A DNA stretch of 8,576 nucleotides from a virus: UHGV virus genome UHGV-1373278; one strand, 5' to 3'. Below are positions 1-8,576 of this stretch, piece by piece (the first letter of the stretch is position 1; every line of letters begins with the position of its first letter). The notes below the pieces were generated by a model. It was not told the DNA's origin, ran no database searches, and saw nothing but the letters and a program-made list of their open reading frames with translations. The position numbers and the translations under genes are program-made.

Positions 1-65
1 CAGTGGATTACGGTCTGTGACCAATGACGGCACCGGTAACGCCAGTTCCCGCCATCCTTACCATT

Positions 66-98
66 GGTGCGCATAATGTACGACTCGTTATGTTGAAA
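66..98 (+). other. dif-like XerC/XerD recombination site (putative prophage attachment junction)
   Basis: GGTGCGCATAA (66-76) is identical to the E. coli dif XerC arm as I recall it. It is followed by an 11-nt central region TGTACGACTCG (77-87), versus 6 nt in chromosomal dif, then TTATGTTGAAA (88-98), which matches the dif XerD arm TTATGTTAAAT at 9 of 11 positions. Confidence 0.5.
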
Positions 99-136
99 AG
101 GCCGCTGCGAAAATCGAATCCCGCAGCGGCCTCTTT
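96..136. terminator. Stem-loop, probable bidirectional rho-independent terminator
   Basis: Perfect 10-bp inverted repeat GGCCGCTGCG (100-109) / CGCAGCGGCC (122-131) with a 12-nt loop. Flanked by AAAA (96-99), which is a U-run on the - strand, and TCTTT (132-136). Lies just downstream of the - strand CDS ending at 163. Confidence 0.5.
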
Positions 137-162
137 AGCATAACGTCATTATGCGAACCATA

Positions 163-963
163 TTATATTATTTTTATTTTTGGAAGCACATCATTCATGA
201 CTTTGACTCTTCCTCCATCCTTCATTTTATAATGATGCCAACTATCTGATTGAGCAATCGCATCATCGTGTATTTCTTTCGATATAGCTAATAAGTCCGT
301 ATTCATCCATGAAAATATACCTTCATCTACAAACTGTTTTGATATCAGCTCATAGTGGCTATTCTTTTTTACCGCAACATACAATGGATATTTTCTTTCG
401 ATATTTTCAGCTAAGCTGTCAAATGATATTATTGAAAAGTCATCCCGTTGTTGGCCTCTAATTAATGAGGTTTTTAATACATTGCCTTCATATTCCGATC
501 TGCGGCCGTGAACTAATACATACTTGAAGTTAAAGGGATTTCTTGCCATATGAGCTGGCTCAATAAAACCTTGTAATGTGTTGTTTTTAAAGTGATTTCT
601 ATTTGATTCCTCATCAATCCATGCTCTCCATGTATTTATCTGCTGTAACGCCATATTAAAATCAGCATGAAAGTCTGTGGATTTATCTTTAAAGTATTTT
701 GAGGATGGTTTTTCTATTTCAACAAGTACCACATTCCAATTGTCTGAACTTTTTGCGAGATATACGAAATCTGGTTTGTAATCACTAGATAATGGTAATT
801 TTCTAAGTACGGTACAAAAATGAATCCCATGATTTTGTTCAAATTCTCTTGGGATGAACATGGTGTTTTCTTCTAAATAATTTTGGTAAACTTGTTCAAC
901 TTCATTTCTATCCAGCAATTGCATATATTCATTTCTTTTCTGAACAGCATCTTGACCATTCAT
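163..963 (-). CDS. Hypothetical protein, 266 aa, with PD-(D/E)xK-like nuclease signature; AT-rich accessory cargo gene
   Basis: Long uninterrupted ORF in visibly AT-rich DNA, where chance ORFs of this length are unlikely. ATG start at 963-961. Motif KPDFVYL followed 13 residues later by a hydrophobic strand and VVLVEIEKP (residues about 64-86) resembles the restriction-endonuclease-like D ... (D/E)xK core. Function not established. Confidence 0.65.
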   Translation of the reverse strand: MNGQDAVQKRNEYMQLLDRNEVEQVYQNYLEENTMFIPREFEQNHGIHFCTVLRKLPLSSDYKPDFVYLAKSSDNWNVVLVEIEKPSSKYFKDKSTDFHADFNMALQQINTWRAWIDEESNRNHFKNNTLQGFIEPAHMARNPFNFKYVLVHGRRSEYEGNVLKTSLIRGQQRDDFSIISFDSLAENIERKYPLYVAVKKNSHYELISKQFVDEGIFSWMNTDLLAISKEIHDDAIAQSDSWHHYKMKDGGRVKVMNDVLPKIKII

Positions 964-1839: not shown

Positions 1840-1968
1840 ATGCTCATGAACTCATATCATCCAAGCCTCTTGAACTCACTAGCTCACTGGTGTAATGTTA
1901 AAACACTAATGAACTACTGAACTCATGTGTTAGTAAGTCGTCATTTTTGCAATTTTGAGGATTTATTC
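1840..1968 (+). promoter_or_regulatory. gII upstream control region: iterated TGAACT(C/A)(A/C) repeats and a candidate sigma70 promoter; possible (+) origin region
   Basis: Four direct copies of TGAACTCA-like octamers at 1847-1854, 1871-1878, 1911-1918 and 1919-1926. Candidate -35 TTGAAC (1870-1875), 17-nt spacer, -10 TAATGT (1893-1898). GAGG (1957-1960) lies 8 nt before the GTG at 1969. Several short dyad symmetries (TCATGA, TGAGT/ACTCA) at 1830-1855. Confidence 0.4.
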
Positions 1969-3021
1969 GTGATCGATTGGCTTACCGGGATTTTCCCTTG
2001 CACACACAAACCGCTTCCGGCGGGGAGTGTTGTCAGCGTTGATGCTGACGGTGCAATTGAGTGGGAAACCGTTAAGCGACTGACTGTTCGCGGTTCGCAT
2101 GAAGCAACGATGAAAGTACGATCGATAGGATCTAATGGCGAAGGTAAAGCGACACATTTGTACATTGATGGTAATCCTTCCAAGTTTCTGCAGGGGCATT
2201 CTGTTGTTGGGTCGGATGATATACAAGGGCTCATGTTGACGGTCTATGCCAGGATTTTATCCTTATTGAATATTCCTCATGATTTAGCGTCTTATAAAGC
2301 CGTTATGGCAGGTCAGTATAAAATTTCACGTGTTGACATTAATTACATGTATTCATTATCTACGCTGGAAAATGTCAGATCATGGCTTTATGCCGCCGAA
2401 TTTAAAGCTAAAACACGCCATGGTCGCGCATGTGGGAAAGGCGGTACAGTTTATTTAGGTAAAAACTCCCGTCGATGGAGTCTGAAATTTTATTCAAAAT
2501 ATGATGAACACGTTTCTGGTAAAAAAGGGCACCAGATAGCCGAAGAGTTTGTACGAGCCGGGTTACTGGACTGGACGAAAGATAAATTACGTATTGAATT
2601 AACATTAAGAACAACTGAGCTTATTGATTTAAATTTAACGCTTGGCGCTAACTGGAATATGAAAACACCACGTCAATTATTCTCTGAATATGTAGGGAGA
2701 ATAGAAATGAATCAGAATGCTATTTTAAGTGATGAAAAAATAACGAAACTGCCAAGAAAAATACAGTCAACTTATTTACTTTGGAAACAAGGGGCTAACA
2801 TGAAAGAAATGTTACCTCATAACACTTTTTATCGCCATAGAAGAGAATTGCTTTCGTTCGGTATCGATATTAATTTCTATTGTGATTCACCAGACTCTAA
2901 TAACGTTGTTCCGCTAATAAGAACGCTGGAAGCCAAGCCAGCGGAAATCCCCTTATGGATTTATGAGAAAGGTTTTATTTTCGATTACAACCGTATTTCG
3001 CACGCCAGTAGCTGGCATTAA
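1969..3021 (+). CDS. II: Replication initiation protein pII (rolling-circle nickase), Ff gene II homolog
   Basis: No in-frame ATG near the 5' end, so a GTG start is inferred. GTG at 1969 has a GAGG RBS 8 nt upstream and gives MIDWLTG..., like Ff pII MIDMLVL... The alternative GTG at 1927 lacks an RBS. C-terminal region contains NVVPLIR, as in Ff pII (NVVPLVR). First gene in the Ff order. Confidence 0.8.
   Translation: MIDWLTGIFPCTHKPLPAGSVVSVDADGAIEWETVKRLTVRGSHEATMKVRSIGSNGEGKATHLYIDGNPSKFLQGHSVVGSDDIQGLMLTVYARILSLLNIPHDLASYKAVMAGQYKISRVDINYMYSLSTLENVRSWLYAAEFKAKTRHGRACGKGGTVYLGKNSRRWSLKFYSKYDEHVSGKKGHQIAEEFVRAGLLDWTKDKLRIELTLRTTELIDLNLTLGANWNMKTPRQLFSEYVGRIEMNQNAILSDEKITKLPRKIQSTYLLWKQGANMKEMLPHNTFYRHRRELLSFGIDINFYCDSPDSNNVVPLIRTLEAKPAEIPLWIYEKGFIFDYNRISHASSWH
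2707..3021 (+). CDS. X: pX, in-frame internal translation product of gene II (104 aa)
   Basis: In-frame ATG at 2707 preceded by AGGGAGA (2694-2700) with a 6-nt spacer. Product starts MNQNAILSDE, like Ff pX MNIYDDSAVL. An alternative in-frame ATG at about 2660 (MKTPRQ...) is possible. Confidence 0.55.
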   Translation: MNQNAILSDEKITKLPRKIQSTYLLWKQGANMKEMLPHNTFYRHRRELLSFGIDINFYCDSPDSNNVVPLIRTLEAKPAEIPLWIYEKGFIFDYNRISHASSWH

Positions 3022-3032
3022 AGGAAAGTAAT

Positions 3033-3350
3033 ATGTCTAATTATGGTCTTTTCGTTAAGGGTAAAATGTTGGGAGCCCGCCAACGTAATAAAGTTAATGG
3101 TCAGGGCTATTATAATGAAATTGGTATTGGCCTTGAAATACCTGATGGTTTTGGTGGTACAAAGCAGGATCAAATTATTATTCGAGTTTCTCAGGCTCTC
3201 GTTAACGCAGGTCTAATGAACCAGGCGAATGCTTTCATTGGGAAATTAGTTCAAATTCCTGTCTATGTCCGTGCGTGGTCAATGGAGGGTAGGGAAGGTG
3301 TAACTTATAATGTTTCTTCCGATGGTGGCATCGCAGAGATCAAAGGTTAA
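3033..3350 (+). CDS. V: Putative ssDNA-binding protein at the gene V position (105 aa; not recognisably Ff pV-like)
   Basis: ATG at 3033 with AGGA RBS (3022-3025) immediately after the gII stop. Size and position match gene V, but the sequence is Gly-rich and basic and does not match Ff/IKe pV from memory. Confidence 0.6.
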   Translation: MSNYGLFVKGKMLGARQRNKVNGQGYYNEIGIGLEIPDGFGGTKQDQIIIRVSQALVNAGLMNQANAFIGKLVQIPVYVRAWSMEGREGVTYNVSSDGGIAEIKG

Positions 3351-3352
3351 AT

Positions 3353-3439
3353 ATGGACGATGTTATTCAAATTTTGATAGCGTCTGGCATCGTTATTTCT
3401 TTTGGCCTCGGCGCGATTACTGCGGGGGTCTTTCGTTAA
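3353..3439 (+). CDS. VII: Minor coat protein pVII (28 aa)
   Basis: ATG at 3353. Small hydrophobic protein MDDVIQILIASGIVISFGLGAITAGVFR resembles Ff pVII (...ALGIIAGGQR). Stop TAA at 3437-3439 overlaps the next start (TAATG). Confidence 0.6.
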   Translation: MDDVIQILIASGIVISFGLGAITAGVFR

Positions 3440-3534
3440 TGTATATCGTTTATTTCTTCGGGGCTTATACCTTTGGTTTTGCCCTTTTCTATGCGGTCGG
3501 TTCATTTAAATCATTTTCTGACCGATTAATGTAA
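3439..3534 (+). CDS. IX: Minor coat protein pIX (31 aa)
   Basis: ATG at 3439 overlapping the pVII stop. MYIVYFFGAYTFGFALFYAVGSFKSFSDRLM resembles Ff pIX (MSVLVYSFASFVLGWCLRSGITYFTRLMETSS). Confidence 0.6.
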   Translation: MYIVYFFGAYTFGFALFYAVGSFKSFSDRLM

Positions 3535-3553
3535 CCTTAATGGAGTTATTCCT

Positions 3554-3796
3554 ATGAAAATTCTGTCTACTGTTAAATATAAAATTGCTCTGGCTTCAAC
3601 TGCGCTTTTTATTTCTGCAAGTTCTTTTGCGGCTGAAGGCGCTACAGGTGGTACTGATTATGCAGGTCAGGCAATGGATGCTTTGTTGACTCAGGCAAAT
3701 GATCTCATTGGTAAAGTATGGCCTGTTGTTGTTGCTGTGGTTGGCGCTGGGCTTGCCATTCGTATTTTCAAAAAATTCTCTTCAAAAGCGGTTTGA
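3554..3796 (+). CDS. VIII: Major coat protein pVIII precursor (80 aa; mature about 54 aa)
   Basis: GGAG RBS 8 nt upstream. Signal peptide [26 protein letters not shown], then mature AEGATGG... with a hydrophobic core and basic C-terminus [11 protein letters not shown], close to Ff/IKe pVIII (...KLFKKFTSKAS). Confidence 0.9.
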
Positions 3797-3805
3797 ATTT
3801 CACTC

Positions 3806-3830
3806 AGGGGCACTCGTTGCCCCTTTATTA
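3806..3830 (+). terminator. Rho-independent terminator after gene VIII
   Basis: Perfect 7-bp stem AGGGGCA (3806-3812) / TGCCCCT (3818-3824) with loop CTCGT, followed by TTTATT. Same position as the strong terminator after gene VIII in Ff phages. Confidence 0.7.
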
Positions 3831-3842
3831 AAGCGGGTTACT

Positions 3843-5165
3843 ATGAGAAGGAAAATATTAATTCTTTCCGCTGTCCTCATTTCTCCTTTTTCACATGCTG
3901 AGTCATGGGAAAGCATTACTAAATCCACTTATCAAAGTTCTGCCTACGCTGAAAGTAAGCAAATAACCAATCAGGATGGCTCTAAGATAACGGTTTACTA
4001 TATTGATGCTGCTATGCAGGCCTCCGCTTGTCAGGGTGCTAAATCCAGTGCTCAGAGTGTATTTACTCGGATTAAACCAACTTATGAGGGTATCTGGCCT
4101 GATTCTGAATTCCGTCTTGTTTTTACTGGCGATTGTACTTACAGCGATTCACCAGGGCAGAAGGATAAATATTGGTCTTTAACGGCTTATATTGTTGGTA
4201 ATATTCAGCGTTCTGTTCCTGATGAAAAACCTACTGACCCGACACCAGAAGAAATTTGTGAAGCGAAGCCGCCAGAAGAAGGTGTATTTAATAATGTTGA
4301 TTCATATGATGGTGGTCGCTATATCTACTATAACGGCTGTGAATATGAGGCTACTGGTGTCATTGTTTGTCAGGGTGATGGTACTGTTTGCGCTGCAACA
4401 TGGAAGCCTACAGGTGCTGTAGCTGACCCCTCTGATAAACCCTCAACCCCCCAAAATGGTGGTGGTGAGTCTGGCGGTGGTGAGTCCAGCGGTGGTGAGT
4501 CCAGCGGTGGTGAGTCTGGCGGTGGTGAGTCCGGCGGTGGTGAGTCCGGTGGTGGTGAGTCCGGCGGTGGTGAGTCTGGCGGTGGTGAGTCCGGTGGCGG
4601 TAGTTCTGGCGGTAGTTCTGGCGGTGGCTCTAGTGGTTCCAGTCTTTCTAAAGGTGATATTCAGTCTGCGATCGAAGGTGCTTCACCCAAAATAGCCAGC
4701 GATATTCATGATAAATTAACGGAGAAAGACACTTCATCAGATGATAAAAAAAATGCCGATGAACAAACCAGGAATAATATAAATCGTCTTGACGATTCCA
4801 TTAACAATCTTACGCGGGGGGCTGGCCGTTTTGCTGACCCTTCAGGTGGTGATTCTCGTTATGGAAAGGGCGACTCTGAATTAGATGGCGCTTCTACTTT
4901 GGCTGATTCTGAATTGGGAATTGAAAAGGATTCTCACGGTGCTTTATGGGAAGCGTTTTTAAATAAAGGTGCTATGCTGCCTAATTTACCCAATGGTAAC
5001 GGCTGCTCTGATTTTATTATTTTTCCCGGAGAGGTTTATCAGATTGATATTGGTTGCGATAAATTACTGACTATTAAAGATGTTCTTTCATGGGTTTTTT
5101 ATTGCCTTACGTTCTGGTATGTCTTTACTTCTTTAACTTCATTGCTTCGCAAAGGGGGTGAGTGA
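3843..5165 (+). CDS. III: Minor coat / adsorption protein pIII (440 aa)
   Basis: ATG at 3843 with signal peptide [19 protein letters not shown]. Cys motif [25 protein letters not shown] resembles the Ff N1 TolA-binding motif (CLWNATGVVVCTGDETQCYGTWVP). GGGES-repeat linker follows. C-terminal ...[40 protein letters not shown] resembles the Ff pIII C-terminus. The 3699 ORF-track start is an out-of-context upstream extension overlapping gVIII. Confidence 0.9.
4458..4640 (+). repeat. Tandem 15-bp in-frame repeat array encoding the (G-G-E-S-G/S) linker of pIII
   Basis: Nine near-identical 15-bp units GGTGGTGAGTC(T/C)(G/A)GC(G/T) from about 4461 to 4595, then degenerate Gly/Ser codons to about 4640. 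Confidence 0.85.
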
Positions 5166-5506
5166 TGCCTTTATTATTAGGTATTCCTGCATTGTTGCGT
5201 TTTCTTATTGGTCTTGTTCCTTTGTTTATTGGCTATGTGGCGAGTTTTTTAGCTCGACTTGCTACCAGAACAGGATTAATCGCCTTTGCATTGGTCGCAT
5301 TAATTACAACAACTGTTACGCTTTTAATGCAGTACCTTGCTGAGGTCATGTATAACGGTTTACCTGCTGATTTCTCCCATTTAATGGCGTCTGTATTGCC
5401 TGACCATTTTCAGGCGTGTGTTAACGTTATTATGGTTACTCGTATCAGTGTTTTTGTTTTCGATTTAAAACAAAAGTTTCTTGATTATGCAAACAGGGTG
5501 ATTTAA
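5165..5506 (+). CDS. VI: Minor coat protein pVI (113 aa)
   Basis: ATG at 5165 overlapping the gIII stop TGA (ATGA). [24 protein letters not shown]... resembles Ff pVI (MPVLLGIPLLLRFLGFLLVTLFGY...). C-terminal FVFDLKQKF matches Ff FIFDVKQKI. Confidence 0.9.
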   Translation: MPLLLGIPALLRFLIGLVPLFIGYVASFLARLATRTGLIAFALVALITTTVTLLMQYLAEVMYNGLPADFSHLMASVLPDHFQACVNVIMVTRISVFVFDLKQKFLDYANRVI

Positions 5507-6601
5507 ATGGCGGTTTATGTAGTAACAGGCAAATTAGGCTCAGGCAAGACACTTGTTAGTGTTTCCAGAATACAGGAAAGACTTGCTAAGGGTTGTCCTG
5601 TTGCCACTAATCTTGATCTTAAATTGCATAATATGCCTATGGTTGGGCGTTATGCGAAAAAAACGCGCGTTATTCGCATTCCTGACAAGCCTTCATTAAA
5701 TGATTTACTTGCTATTGGTATTGGGAATACATCTTACGATGAATCCCGTAATGGCCTCCTTGTACTTGATGAATGTGGTACTTGGTTTAATTCCCGCTCA
5801 TGGGGTGATAAAGACAGACAACCTGTTATTGACTGGTTTTTACATGCCAGAAAATTAGGCTGGGATATTATATTTTTGATTCAGGATATTTCGATAATGG
5901 ATAAGCAAGCTCGTCTGGCGCTTGCTGAGCATGTTGTTTATTGTCGCCGTTCAGATAAATTAAACATTCCTTTTGTTGGCTCCATTATGAATTTGGTTTC
6001 AGGGGCGAGATTTTCTTTACCAAAGGTACACTTTGGCATTGTCAAATATGGTGATAATGTTAATTCAATCACTGTTGATAAATGGATATATACAGGAAAA
6101 TCTCTTTATTCTGCTTACAATACCAAACAAGCGTTCACAGATAATTATCCTCATGGCGCATTTTCGCTTTTGCCACCATTTATCACGCACGGTCAATTTT
6201 CTGTTCACAGAGGATTTAATTATTATATGCGCCTCACTAAAATTTATTTTCGCAAATCGAACCGTCTTATATTAATGCTTTCTTTTTTGGCGCTGGGGCT
6301 TGCGTTTGGTTTCTGGCTCCAGTCTGGAAAGAATGTTGATGAAATCTCAGCTATTAAATCTGCTTATGCTGAACAGGCGAGGGCGGTAACGCCTGATTCG
6401 TCCAGTAACTTACCCCGACTTTCTATTAATTCTTTTTCACAACTTGGCTTTGACGTTTCCGTTACGTTTGTTGATGCTAAAGGTATGAAATATCAGTATT
6501 TTGATTTGATTAAAGATGGTTATTCCGTTGATATTAAAGATGCCTGTCGTGTTGTTATTAGAAAAGGCCGTTATTTACAGACTGTTACCTGTCAGGAGTA
6601 A
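5507..6601 (+). CDS. I: Assembly ATPase pI (Zot-like, 364 aa)
   Basis: ATG at 5507 immediately after the gVI stop. N-terminus MAVYVVTGKLGSGKTLVSV (Walker A) is nearly identical to Ff pI MAVYFVTGKLGSGKTLVSV. Extensive similarity continues (LLVLDECGTWFN, IIDWFLHARKLGWDIIFL). Confidence 0.9.
   Translation: MAVYVVTGKLGSGKTLVSVSRIQERLAKGCPVATNLDLKLHNMPMVGRYAKKTRVIRIPDKPSLNDLLAIGIGNTSYDESRNGLLVLDECGTWFNSRSWGDKDRQPVIDWFLHARKLGWDIIFLIQDISIMDKQARLALAEHVVYCRRSDKLNIPFVGSIMNLVSGARFSLPKVHFGIVKYGDNVNSITVDKWIYTGKSLYSAYNTKQAFTDNYPHGAFSLLPPFITHGQFSVHRGFNYYMRLTKIYFRKSNRLILMLSFLALGLAFGFWLQSGKNVDEISAIKSAYAEQARAVTPDSSSNLPRLSINSFSQLGFDVSVTFVDAKGMKYQYFDLIKDGYSVDIKDACRVVIRKGRYLQTVTCQE
6227..6601 (+). CDS. XI: pXI, in-frame internal translation product of gene I (124 aa)
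   Basis: In-frame ATG at residue 241 of pI (MRLTKIYFRKSN...), the same position and context as Ff pXI (Met241, MKLTKIYLKKF...), followed by a TM segment. Purine-rich AGAGGA lies about 12 nt upstream. Confidence 0.5.
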   Translation: MRLTKIYFRKSNRLILMLSFLALGLAFGFWLQSGKNVDEISAIKSAYAEQARAVTPDSSSNLPRLSINSFSQLGFDVSVTFVDAKGMKYQYFDLIKDGYSVDIKDACRVVIRKGRYLQTVTCQE

Positions 6602-6608
6602 TATTATT

Positions 6609-7874
6609 ATGCGCTCTGTTATTGTTGCTTTTTTATTTGCCTGTTCATTCTGCGTTTCTGCTGAAACTGTTAATTTAAATAATTCATCTGTTCGCTCATT
6701 TGTTCAGTGGTATTCTTCAAAAACTGGCAAGCCTGTTATTGTTAATCCTGATATTAAAGGAAACGTAACCGTATTTAATGCTGATGTTAATCCAGCAAAT
6801 ATTGATGATTTCTTTAAGTCTGTTCTGAATGCTAACGGTTTTGTCATGCTTTCTGGCAATCCTGCGGTAGTCTCTTTGCCGTCTAAATTACCTTCACAGA
6901 TGGTTTCGGATTCCGATGATTCTGATAACCAGTCTTATGATACTTTTCCTTCTGAGCCATCTTACCAGCCAGTACCTGTGGCGCTTACGGTCAGAAATTT
7001 TAAGCTGACAAAAGTTAGATCGTCCGATGTTCAGCAACTGATTAAAATTTATCTTGATTCTAATGGTGGTGGTAATGTCGTGGATTATCCAGGCAATAAC
7101 TCGCTGATTGTTTCTGCGCCTGACGAGCTGCTGCCGGTTCTGTCCGATTTTATCAATTCTGTGGATGTTGCCCGCGATCAGGTTCTCATTCAGTCGCTGA
7201 TGTTTGAAACCAGCTTGTCTGATGGCGTTGATTTATCGTTTGCGGCAGGTTCTGCATCCGGTCATAAGGTTGCGGGGGGCTTTAATACTTCTGCACTGGG
7301 TAGCGCTCTTTCTACGGCGGGCGGTTCTTTTGGTATTTTTGATGGTAACGTGTTGGCGCTGTCTCTGCGTGCTGTCCAGAGTAATTCACGCTCTAAGGTG
7401 ATTTCAACGCCGCGTATTCTTACTCAGTCTGGTCAGACTGGTTACATTTCCGTAGGTAAGAATGTGCCGTTTATCACCGGAAAGGTAACGGGCGAATCTG
7501 CCGGGGTAAATAATCCGTTTCAGACTATCGAGCGTCATGATGTTGGCGTTTCTCTCAAGGTAACGCCTGTTGTCATGGGTAACGGGCAACTAGTTCTGAC
7601 TATCGACACTCGCGCTGATTCAATCAGCAATGATGATCAGGCATCCGATATTATTACTAATCAGCGCCAGATTCAGACGACAGTCCAGATTAAGGATGGT
7701 CAGACGTTGTTATTGGGGGGGCTTATCGATTCATCGTTCAGCAATGCCGAGCGTTCAGTTCCAGTTATAAGTAAAATTCCTCTTATAGGCTGGATTTTCA
7801 GTAGCAAGGCAGACAGCAATGAACAGCGTATTATGTATATTTTGCTTACAGCACATATCATTCGTCCACTTTGA
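6609..7874 (+). CDS. IV: Outer-membrane secretin pIV (421 aa)
   Basis: ATG at 6609 with AGGAG (6594-6598) about 10 nt upstream. Signal peptide MRSVIVAFLFACSFCVSA. Strong similarity to Ff pIV throughout (VRSFVQWYSS..., NVPFITGKVTGESAGVNNPFQTIERHDVG..., DGQTLLLGGL..., SKIPLIGW-FSS). The 6516 ORF-track start is an upstream extension inside gI. Confidence 0.9.
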   Translation: MRSVIVAFLFACSFCVSAETVNLNNSSVRSFVQWYSSKTGKPVIVNPDIKGNVTVFNADVNPANIDDFFKSVLNANGFVMLSGNPAVVSLPSKLPSQMVSDSDDSDNQSYDTFPSEPSYQPVPVALTVRNFKLTKVRSSDVQQLIKIYLDSNGGGNVVDYPGNNSLIVSAPDELLPVLSDFINSVDVARDQVLIQSLMFETSLSDGVDLSFAAGSASGHKVAGGFNTSALGSALSTAGGSFGIFDGNVLALSLRAVQSNSRSKVISTPRILTQSGQTGYISVGKNVPFITGKVTGESAGVNNPFQTIERHDVGVSLKVTPVVMGNGQLVLTIDTRADSISNDDQASDIITNQRQIQTTVQIKDGQTLLLGGLIDSSFSNAERSVPVISKIPLIGWIFSSKADSNEQRIMYILLTAHIIRPL

Positions 7875-7943: not shown

Positions 7944-8252
7944 ATGGATTCTTATGGGATTTTATCTGCTCTGGCAGAACGAACGATTACAGCGGAAGAA
8001 GCAAAAACAATGACACTTGCAGCCAGAAGTTCTTCGGCTCAGGTAAATGAAGCATCACTTGCTCTGTTACTGATTGATAATACTCTGGATGCGATCAAAG
8101 CAGCTGCCAGTGAAGGGAAAGGATACACTTTACTTCCTTCTTATGAGATTTCTGTAAAAGCCATTGATTTAGCAGAAGAATTTTTAAGGAAACAATGCGG
8201 CTATGTTATTGATAACCAGAATGGCGTAAGGACGGTCTATTGGTTTATATGA
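7944..8252 (+). CDS. Hypothetical protein (102 aa), accessory ORF downstream of gIV
   Basis: ATG at 7944 with a weak GGGG(T) SD-like element. Ala/Leu-rich, predicted largely helical, no signal peptide. No recognisable homology from memory. Followed by a structured region and a T7 run (8319-8325). Confidence 0.45.
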   Translation: MDSYGILSALAERTITAEEAKTMTLAARSSSAQVNEASLALLLIDNTLDAIKAAASEGKGYTLLPSYEISVKAIDLAEEFLRKQCGYVIDNQNGVRTVYWFI

Positions 8253-8369: not shown

Positions 8370-8576
8370 ATGCAATTTTTCACATCCAGCGATACTGTAA
8401 TGTTATGTGCGAAGACCTGCGATCGCTGTGGTCGCCATGCGAAGACGGTGGTAGATGACATTGAGTTCAATGAGTTTCTGTCTGTTAATCACTTAGCTGG
8501 ATACGGTTCAATTTTTGGTGACAGTAATCGCTTAAAACTGGATTTATGCCAACATTGCCTGAAAGACGTCCTGGGC
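8370..8576 (+). CDS. Cys-rich (putative zinc-ribbon) hypothetical protein, 5' partial; continues beyond the window
   Basis: ATG at 8370 with strong GAGGAG RBS (8359-8364). Frame open for 69 codons to the window end. Contains C-x3-C-x2-C (CAKTCDRCG) and C-x2-C (CQHC) motifs. Missing from the ORF track because no stop falls in the window. Confidence 0.5.
   Translation, partial: MQFFTSSDTVMLCAKTCDRCGRHAKTVVDDIEFNEFLSVNHLAGYGSIFGDSNRLKLDLCQHCLKDVLG

Follow-up and report, generated by a model that had tools for sequence, protein, structure and literature searches.

How does a filamentous phage that appears to lack a recombinase of its own enter the bacterial chromosome, and what role is played by the cluster of dif-like sequences in its genome? 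The question is raised by the viral genome UHGV-1373278, a stretch of 8,576 nucleotides (referred to as a whole as the window), in which binding arms for XerC and XerD, recombinases of the host, are found around a G+C-rich hairpin at positions 66-159. A preliminary description of the sequence had taken this region for an attachment site of the kind employed by integrative mobile elements exploiting Xer (IMEX). Our analysis indicates that positions 66-159 very probably constitute the attP(+) of a filamentous phage of the UPΦ group, and that this attP(+) is of the type known from CTXφ, where two inverted dif-like sites are brought together in folded single-stranded DNA (ssDNA). The site is composed of the following parts:

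66-76, + strand: XerC-binding arm of attP1, GGTGCGCATAA, an exact match to the XerC arm of dif.
77-87, + strand: central region of attP1, TGTACGACTCG, 11 nt.
88-98, + strand: XerD-like arm of attP1, TTATGTTGAAA, which matches the XerD arm of dif at 9 of 11 positions.
100-131, no strand: tip hairpin of the folded attP(+), a perfect 10-bp G+C-rich stem of GGCCGCTGCG (100-109) with CGCAGCGGCC (122-131) and a loop of 12 nt.
133-143, - strand: XerD-like arm of attP2, TTATGCTAAAG (9 of 11 positions), pairing with 88-98 in ssDNA.
144-148, - strand: central region of attP2, TGACG, 5 nt, pairing with TG (77-78) and the final bases of the attP1 centre.
149-159, - strand: XerC-like arm of attP2, GGTTCGCATAA (10 of 11 positions), pairing with 66-76 except for one G/A mismatch.

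The four elements on which the preliminary description was built (66-76, 88-98, 100-131 and 149-159) were all recovered, including the 11-nt gap, instead of 6, before the imperfect XerD arm, and the perfect stem of the hairpin. The intact dif of E. coli, as read in four chromosomes, is GGTGCGCATAATGTATATTATGTTAAAT; its XerC arm is identical to GGTGCGCATAA, and the XerC side of its central region TGTATA is repeated in the first 3-4 nt of the attP1 centre (TGT(A)). The inverted XerC half-site that had been proposed at 149-159 is real in so far as the + strand, TTATGCGAACC, differs at one position from the reverse complement of the XerC arm, but it is not a half-site: a second XerD-like arm at 133-143 had been overlooked. 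This arm is separated from the inverted XerC arm by 5 nt, and read on the - strand positions 133-159 form a complete dif-like site, GGTTCGCATAA-TGACG-TTATGCTAAAG. The presence of a full inverted site makes the analogy specifically one with the CTXφ type (folded ssDNA) and not with IMEX in general. As to chance, the exact 11-mer of the XerC arm has 0.004 expected occurrences in the window, and for a copy within 200 nt that has no more than one mismatch the probability is about 0.002.

The folding prediction revealed a clear structural association between the two sites. As ssDNA, positions 62-163 form one long imperfect hairpin with a predicted free energy of -31.4 kcal/mol (z-scores of -7.2 to -9.2), and not one of 200 shuffled sequences was as stable. 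The same shape was obtained for all eight variants that were folded (z-scores of -8 to -12) and is kept in at least seven different elements. In the shared fold the XerC-arm stem is followed by 2 bp, a bulge of 5-6 nt on the 5' side, 3 bp, the XerD-arm stem and the tip hairpin, where the bulge consists of the middle 5-6 nt of the attP1 centre in every predicted fold. Covariation was counted on an alignment of 12 sequences with 38 proposed pairs. Of the alignment cells 95.6% are paired and nine pairs display compensatory changes; in 500 shuffles neither the paired fraction nor the compensatory count was matched, and slid controls yielded 0-1 compensatory pairs. Among the changing pairs, three belong to the tip hairpin and two to the central region, where the end of the attP1 centre covaries with the attP2 centre (...GCG with TGGCG, ...ACG with TGACG and ...GCA with TGACA). 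Site B of a satellite element described below has another stem sequence at the same hairpin position, with three compensatory pairs. The XerD-like arm of attP1 is unchanged in 11 of the 12 aligned variants, and the mismatch in the attP2 XerC stem of the window copy is repaired in other variants. Moreover, the start TGT is invariant in all ten variants of the site-1 central region, while its length is 10-11 nt and its middle is variable.

The centres of attP1 (10-11 bp) and attP2 (5 bp) are non-canonical in all variants, and by analogy with what has been reported for CTXφ (PMC4246890) neither site would be usable by XerCD as a duplex. A different view is that attP1 alone acts as the XerCD substrate in the duplex replicative form, as in VGJφ, where XerC acts first and its exchange is resolved by replication; on this view the presence of attP2 and the hairpin would be incidental, for instance as a terminator and a decayed duplicate. 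Duplex use of this kind predicts the attL, the attR and the orientation that are actually observed (see below), and a need for homology on the XerC side, here provided by TGT, exists in VGJφ too. Known duplex XerCD sites, however, have centres of 6-8 bp. The attP1 centre measures 10-11 bp in every variant, direct reading of the sequence shows no XerD arm at a spacing of 6-7 bp from the attP1 XerC arm, and the 12-bp attP1 of CTXφ was stated to be unsuitable (PMC4246890). In addition, attP2 and the hairpin have been kept, with compensatory changes, in unrelated elements, and the stable tandem arrays speak against a reversible duplex site. Taken together, we consider the VGJφ-type use of attP1 improbable.

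The location of the related prophages connects the site directly to dif. All inspected prophages sit between hipBA and the ydeS/fimA-like fimbrial operon, which is the dif locus, and have dif at their right end. Every attL examined (L001, L008, L009, L010, L012 and L014) consists of the host flank, the XerC arm and the attP1 central region; in UM146, for example, the hipA flank is followed by GGTGCGCATAA, TGTACGACTCG, TTATGTTGAAA and the hairpin. The attR is an intact 28-bp dif in the window-type arrays L001, L002 and L004: in UM146 it comes directly after the right end of the phage, and the arrays of OU342919 and WL297 end in an intact dif as well. Head-to-tail arrays of at least two copies were found in OU342919, HUM3355 and WL297, and their phage-phage junctions carry an attP1-type site. 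The orientation is always the one expected for + strand exchange at attP1, and in none of the lysogens does the attP2 centre lie beside the host XerC arm. In UM146 (NC_017632, L001:5780-6010) the 3' end of hipA and the attL flank are full of N, at positions that distinguish the host flank from the right end of the phage; this run is apparently a collapsed assembly of attL with a tandem junction, and more than one copy is probably present there. A Pfam scan of the 10 largest open reading frames (ORFs) of the window yielded no integrase or resolvase, and the remaining ORFs are too small to encode one. The inverted dif-like pair, the prophages at dif and the lack of an own recombinase thus agree with the earlier proposal of an IMEX-type region that uses the host XerCD. 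The same can be said for the proposed CUS-1/Ypf-like, dif-integrated lifestyle, considering the near-identical prophages at the E. coli dif, which have been published as UPΦ (PMC7307601).

The XerC arm of the window phage equals that of the host, and for that reason the crossover cannot be mapped in this phage itself. It is visible in the sibling elements at L008, L009 and L010, because the first position of their XerC arm is marked by an A instead of a G. (The arm is also polymorphic among hosts, with GGTGCACATAA in strains like A22.) More specifically, the attL of a sibling phage in E. coli RIVM_C037794, designated phage B, combines the G of the host with the phage central region, its tandem junction combines the A of the phage with the phage central region, and its attR (L018) is a complete dif with the A of the phage, the TGTATA of the host and the XerD arm of the host. 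The exchange in phage B therefore took place where the XerC arm meets the central region and was confined to the XerC side, and each centre stayed with its own XerD arm. The suggestion that the crossover probably lies in the central region can be narrowed down accordingly to this boundary, as seen in phage B. Junctions of this form are those that would be expected from a single XerC-catalysed strand exchange resolved by replication.

Bases 1-76 had previously been considered host-derived, a view in which the window begins in host DNA and positions 66-98 represent a hybrid attL made on the chromosome. The attL of single lysogens has exactly the sequence of the window from base 66 on, and as the XerC arm is the same in host and phage, positions 66-76 on their own can be assigned to neither. 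The bases in front of the arm are more informative:

1-27, + strand: 3' end of the last phage ORF (77 amino acids, CxxC...CxxC, at the position of h2/YPO2281), which starts at 8372, wraps over the window ends and is contiguous in UM146 (L001:14123-14356).
28-65, + strand: phage spacer that separates the last ORF from the XerC arm.

The joined sequence 8576/1 is unbroken through the phage-phage tandem junctions (L002, L003 and L004) and into the attR in UM146 (L001). Together with the ORF 8372-27 these joins imply that bases 1-65 are phage DNA. The same 65 bases precede the attR dif and every phage-phage junction, and they are unlike the host flank of the empty dif, which was read in E. coli strain A22. 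The contiguity over 8576/1 and the A22 flank rule out a host origin of 1-65, and the hybrid-attL reading retains hardly any credibility. The window is one circularly permuted phage unit, and a second junction in or just past the window, as it had been anticipated, is therefore not to be expected. We also considered the capture of the right end from a Yersinia dif flank, as the left flank in L013 (Y. pestis NCTC5923, YpfΦ) resembles window 40-65. This was rejected: between L013:1-473 and the right end of L014, the CUS-1-like prophage, the identity is 99.6%, from which it follows that L013 holds a YpfΦ-YpfΦ junction and not host DNA.

Could the inverted repeat be a structural bystander, mainly a terminator or boundary, with the copies in the arrays added mostly by homologous recombination with resident prophages? 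Convergent genes, with their stops at 27 and 163, flank the hairpin, cargo genes accompany it in an IS1202-like transposon that lacks the XerC arm (see below), and homologous recombination was raised as a possibility for superinfection by YpfΦ (PMC4266046). An intrinsic terminator scan, however, did not call the hairpin 100-131, given its 12-nt loop and poor T-tract, although it possibly acts as a weak terminator as well; a search of the window against Rfam returned no RNA family at gathering scores. Such a role leaves unexplained why XerC and XerD arms are conserved on both sides, why TGT is invariant and why attL and attR are precise at a naive dif, and the first insertion at an empty dif cannot be homologous. 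We regard the bystander explanation as very unlikely.

For the CTXφ-type attP(+) the following scheme can be proposed. The + strand of the window is inferred to be the packaged one, as the core genes of Ff phages are in sense on the viral strand. In the packaged (+) ssDNA attP1 (66-98) would pair with the inverted attP2 (133-159), capped by the hairpin 100-131, to give a duplex resembling dif in which both the XerC arm and the XerD arm are paired and the centre is partly so, with a 5-6-nt bulge. Host XerC would cleave between A76 and T77 and swap one strand with the top strand of the chromosomal dif, the exchange being stabilised by pairing of the shared TGT. The pseudo-Holliday junction would then be resolved by replication, and this would result in an attL of host flank, XerC arm and the 11-nt phage centre onward, and an attR that is an intact dif. 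The regenerated dif could accept further copies, leading to tandem arrays, from which new genomes would arise by rolling-circle replication. If indeed the duplex forms of attP1 (with a centre of 10-11 bp) and attP2 (5 bp) are no substrates for XerCD, integration would be effectively irreversible. The ssDNA as substrate, the catalysis by XerC only, the resolution by replication and any role of EndoIII are taken from CTXφ.

Several points weigh against this interpretation. In the first place, all mechanistic steps at this site would be carried over from CTXφ by analogy, and XerC-only exchange on duplex DNA, as in VGJφ, predicts the same junctions. The - strand folds nearly equally well (-30.5 kcal/mol), and the folding energy is consequently silent on the strand that is used. 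The covariation is derived mostly from few lineages, chiefly satellite site B and the clade of phage B, phage C and the satellite, and the shuffle control ignores relatedness; furthermore, an inverted pair of protein-binding sites would appear 'paired' even without folding. Pairing is imperfect in the window copy: the XerC stem is interrupted by a G/A mismatch, the XerD stem contains one A/C mismatch besides two G·T contacts, and only 5 bp are paired in the central region versus 7 in CTXφ. Finally, YpfΦ was reported to be mostly extrachromosomal in E. coli under laboratory conditions (PMC4266046).

The architecture is not restricted to the window phage. A pattern scan over one genome per species found the site in six contigs, namely of Y. 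pestis (with an identical attP1), Rosenbergiella, Kluyvera and Lelliottia, and in two E. coli-like contigs in metagenome bins. An attP1 centre of 10-11 nt combined with an attP2 centre of 5 nt and a tip hairpin is found in YpfΦ, in the CUS-1-like L014, in L008, L009 and L010, and in the Rosenbergiella, Kluyvera and Lelliottia elements. Two of these (L008 and L009) are unrelated filamentous prophages of E. coli and one (L010) is a 3.66-kb satellite; they occupy the same dif with the same architecture at 81-86% identity. The contigs L012 and L014, which are filed under Candidatus Nanosynbacter and Ruminococcaceae bins, show the E. coli hipA-dif flank followed by a UPΦ or CUS-1-type prophage, and are almost certainly mis-binned E. 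coli DNA.

The satellite-like element of E. coli cM8a (L010:9004-18096) is present at dif in at least three tandem copies. It codes only for gII (69% identical to that of the window), an ssDNA-binding protein and two small ORFs, and has two folded-attP structures per unit. The second of these (12482-12590) contains a different tip hairpin and a covarying XerC arm, AGTGCGTATAA with TTGTACGCACT, and its centre starts with GA instead of TGT, which possibly points to a different target site. In E. coli RIVM_C037794 (L008:6329-17082 and L018:1744-9753) several elements follow one another at dif: the IS1202-like SIR2 element comes first, next two tandem copies of a filamentous prophage that is unrelated and has a Rep_trans-type initiator, and finally dif. 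This series shows that the regenerated dif is used successively by different elements.

To what phage does the site belong? Outside the attachment region the window contains:

1927-7874, + strand: core phage genes gII, gV, gVII, gVIII, gIII, gVI, gI (Zot) and gIV (secretin), assigned with Pfam, the RefSeq annotation of near-identical prophages and tblastn against IKe, I2-2, If1 and fd.
7944-8252 and 8372-27: extra ORFs after gIV.
163-963, - strand: Shedu SduA nuclease gene (266 amino acids), cargo adjoining attP2 (Pfam SduA_C, 2.4e-25; PADLOC SduA, 5e-111).

The Pfam domains found in the window are G2P, G5P, G3P, Zot, secretin and SduA. The first five, together with a pI that is 66% identical to that of IKe, 63% to that of I2-2 and 53% to that of fd (tblastn), establish the phage as Ff/IKe-like, in agreement with the Ff-like nature that had been supposed. 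Compared at the protein level with the CUS-1-like L014, gII is 86% and gV 95% identical, whereas the genes from gVIII to gIV form a morphogenesis module unrelated to the one in CUS-1/YpfΦ, with 27% identity for pIV and no match for the others. The window could not be identified with CUS-1 itself, a phage of E. coli O18:K1:H7, as gII has only 79-80% nucleotide identity and the morphogenesis genes are unrelated. Megablast against characterised phage genomes gave only short matches, to IKe/PEar (gIV) and If1 (intergenic). Close relatives reside in E. coli: 47 chromosomes match at least 80% of the window length with 98-99% identity. The prophage of ECONIH2, which matches at 98.4%, has been named among the UPΦ phages and forms a tandem triple there (PMC7307601). 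Judged by its sequence the phage is a member of this published UPΦ group, with IKe-like morphogenesis, YpfΦ/CUS-1Φ-like gII and gV, and the attP module of YpfΦ. The gIII ORF (3699-5165) exceeds the 1251-1323 nt annotated in near-identical prophages and spans a G+C-rich part around 4200-4800, in line with the published observation that glycine-rich linker repeats vary in number in the g3p of UPΦ (PMC7307601).

The position taken by the Shedu gene is filled differently in other copies of the phage. In WL297 the slot holds an STM4504/CBY_0614 Abi-like gene, in UM146 the ECs_2282 zinc-binding protein and a 159-amino-acid ORF, and HUM3355 and OU342919 have others. The slot beside attP behaves as a hypervariable accessory slot, probably related to defence; a parallel defence-rich hypervariable region has been described for Vibrio inoviruses (PMC12715192). 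A further 870 or so E. coli records contain window 88-161, comprising the XerD arm of attP1, the hairpin and attP2 (72-74 nt, 93-96% identical), and 488 of the places are on plasmids. This half-attP resides in an element of 2.8 kb that is bounded by TGT...ACA, is accompanied by a 5-bp duplication (ATGTT) and encodes an ISNCY_2-type transposase; copies of it were read on plasmid p94EC-1 (L005:3951-6751) and at dif in a chromosome (L006:3941-6712). Its passenger is SIR2 in one copy and STM4504/CBY_0614 in another. The element lies 5 bp from the XerC arm of a chromosomal dif or of a plasmid dif-like site, TGTGCGCACAA-TCTATC-TTATGTTAAAT. These features fit a dif-hunting transporter insertion sequence of the IS1202 family, a family that is known to target dif and in which some members carry passengers (PMC10132070; bioRxiv 10.1101/2022.12.17.520857). 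The IS1202-like inverted repeat is situated exactly where the XerC arm and centre of attP1 would be; several insertion and deletion scenarios were weighed and none was settled.

On the other side of the slot the window contains an element of about 50 nt, CCGCGAAGCGGTTCGGGGTTCAGTGACACCCGAACTTTACCGTGGTTTCC (1046-1096), that matches, at 98% identity, a portion of the major intergenic region in the non-integrating phage If1. It also occurs in the Lelliottia and Rosenbergiella prophages, in the cM8a satellite and in the IS1202-like element, upstream of the passenger gene. The fold of 1020-1120 is not significant (z-score of -1.2) and the region has no Rfam match. As both the half-attP and the ~50-nt element are found in the transposon, both borders of the phage cargo slot lie inside it. 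The two borders occur together in the UPΦ phage of the window, the mini-satellite and the IS1202-like transporter, which is found in some 870 records of E. coli plasmids and chromosomes. The attP module and the ~50-nt element are also both present in the prophages of Rosenbergiella and Lelliottia, whereas CUS-1/YpfΦ and two unrelated inoviruses have the attP module alone. It is conceivable, though we put this forward only tentatively, that 88-161 and 1046-1096 bracket a portable defence-gene slot, that competitors for dif swap cargo through these shared borders, and that the transposon provides an unrecognised route by which inovirus cargo (Shedu, SIR2, Abi-like) reaches plasmids.

The sequence data confirm that the folded-attP strategy of CTXφ is followed by UPΦ phages in the version of YpfΦ/CUS-1Φ. 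The site would account for three traits of these phages, i.e. the lock-in after integration, the pile-up in tandem arrays and a dif that is left free for others. The borders of such prophages in E. coli are best drawn at the boundary between XerC arm and central region. In a wider sense the E. coli dif is a crowded place: no fewer than four backbones of filamentous phages or satellites land there, and so does an IS1202-like transposon. All of them share pieces of one attP module and carry anti-phage genes, and this context may be the more useful outcome.

How does the site compare with the known modes of XerCD exploitation? It has in common with the VGJφ and TLCφ types the use of host XerCD and of dif as target, and VGJφ also regenerates a usable dif. 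These types, however, rely on a single duplex site of 28-29 bp with a centre of 6-7 bp and are reversible, whereas two sites with centres of 11 and 5 bp are present here. Moreover, the TLCφ type has an attP without a proper XerD arm, a first exchange by XerD and the activator XafT. Here the crossover maps to the XerC side, and the centre of dif is not separated from its XerD arm. By these features the site fits neither of the two types.

The likeness to the attP(+) of CTXφ of Vibrio cholerae is much closer. Both consist of two inverted dif-like sites, in both the attP1 centre opens with host dif bases on the XerC side, and both are located between the last rightward gene and leftward regulatory or accessory genes. 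The centre of attP1 measures 12 bp in CTXφ versus 11 bp here (10 in some copies), that of attP2 5-7 bp versus 5 bp, and the spacer between the sites about 90 bp versus about 34 nt with a perfect hairpin (for the CTXφ centres see PMC4246890 and PMC3089051). For CTXφ irreversible integration and tandem arrays have been described, and neither of its sites works as a duplex (PMC4246890, PMC3089051). Different from CTXφ, the arms are enterobacterial and the phage encodes its own secretin.

In a published listing (PMC4246890) YpfΦ and CUS-1Φ are assigned to the CTXφ type, in which (+)ssDNA is the substrate, XerC acts first and integration is irreversible. Their attP1, hairpin and attP2 have essentially the same sequence as those of the window: the YpfΦ junction L013:433-562 is 95% identical to window 40-169, and attP1 of Y. 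pestis NCTC5923 is identical. They also share with the window phage the integration at dif, the regeneration of an intact dif at the 3' end, the tandem repeats and the variable ORFs by attL (PMC4266046), whereas the morphogenesis module is unrelated and the accessory genes are other ones.

The UPΦ phages, i.e. UPΦ901 and relatives, integrate in tandem at dif and have gII and gV that are more than 85% identical to those of YpfΦ (PMC7307601). They have the IKe/I2-2-like core, the two ORFs after gIV and the reverse-oriented variable ORFs by a dif-like site in common with the window, and the window copy is distinguished by the Shedu gene as cargo. The UPΦ group (2020), its dif-integrated tandem lifestyle and the type of attP (CTXφ, 2005 onward; YpfΦ/CUS-1Φ) have thus been published already, and the sequence of the site was known too. 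What is imprecise is the published 'copy of dif' at the start of the UPΦ genome, which is actually a two-part folded attP. The two-site folded architecture is a refinement of the published UPΦ description and not a new element.

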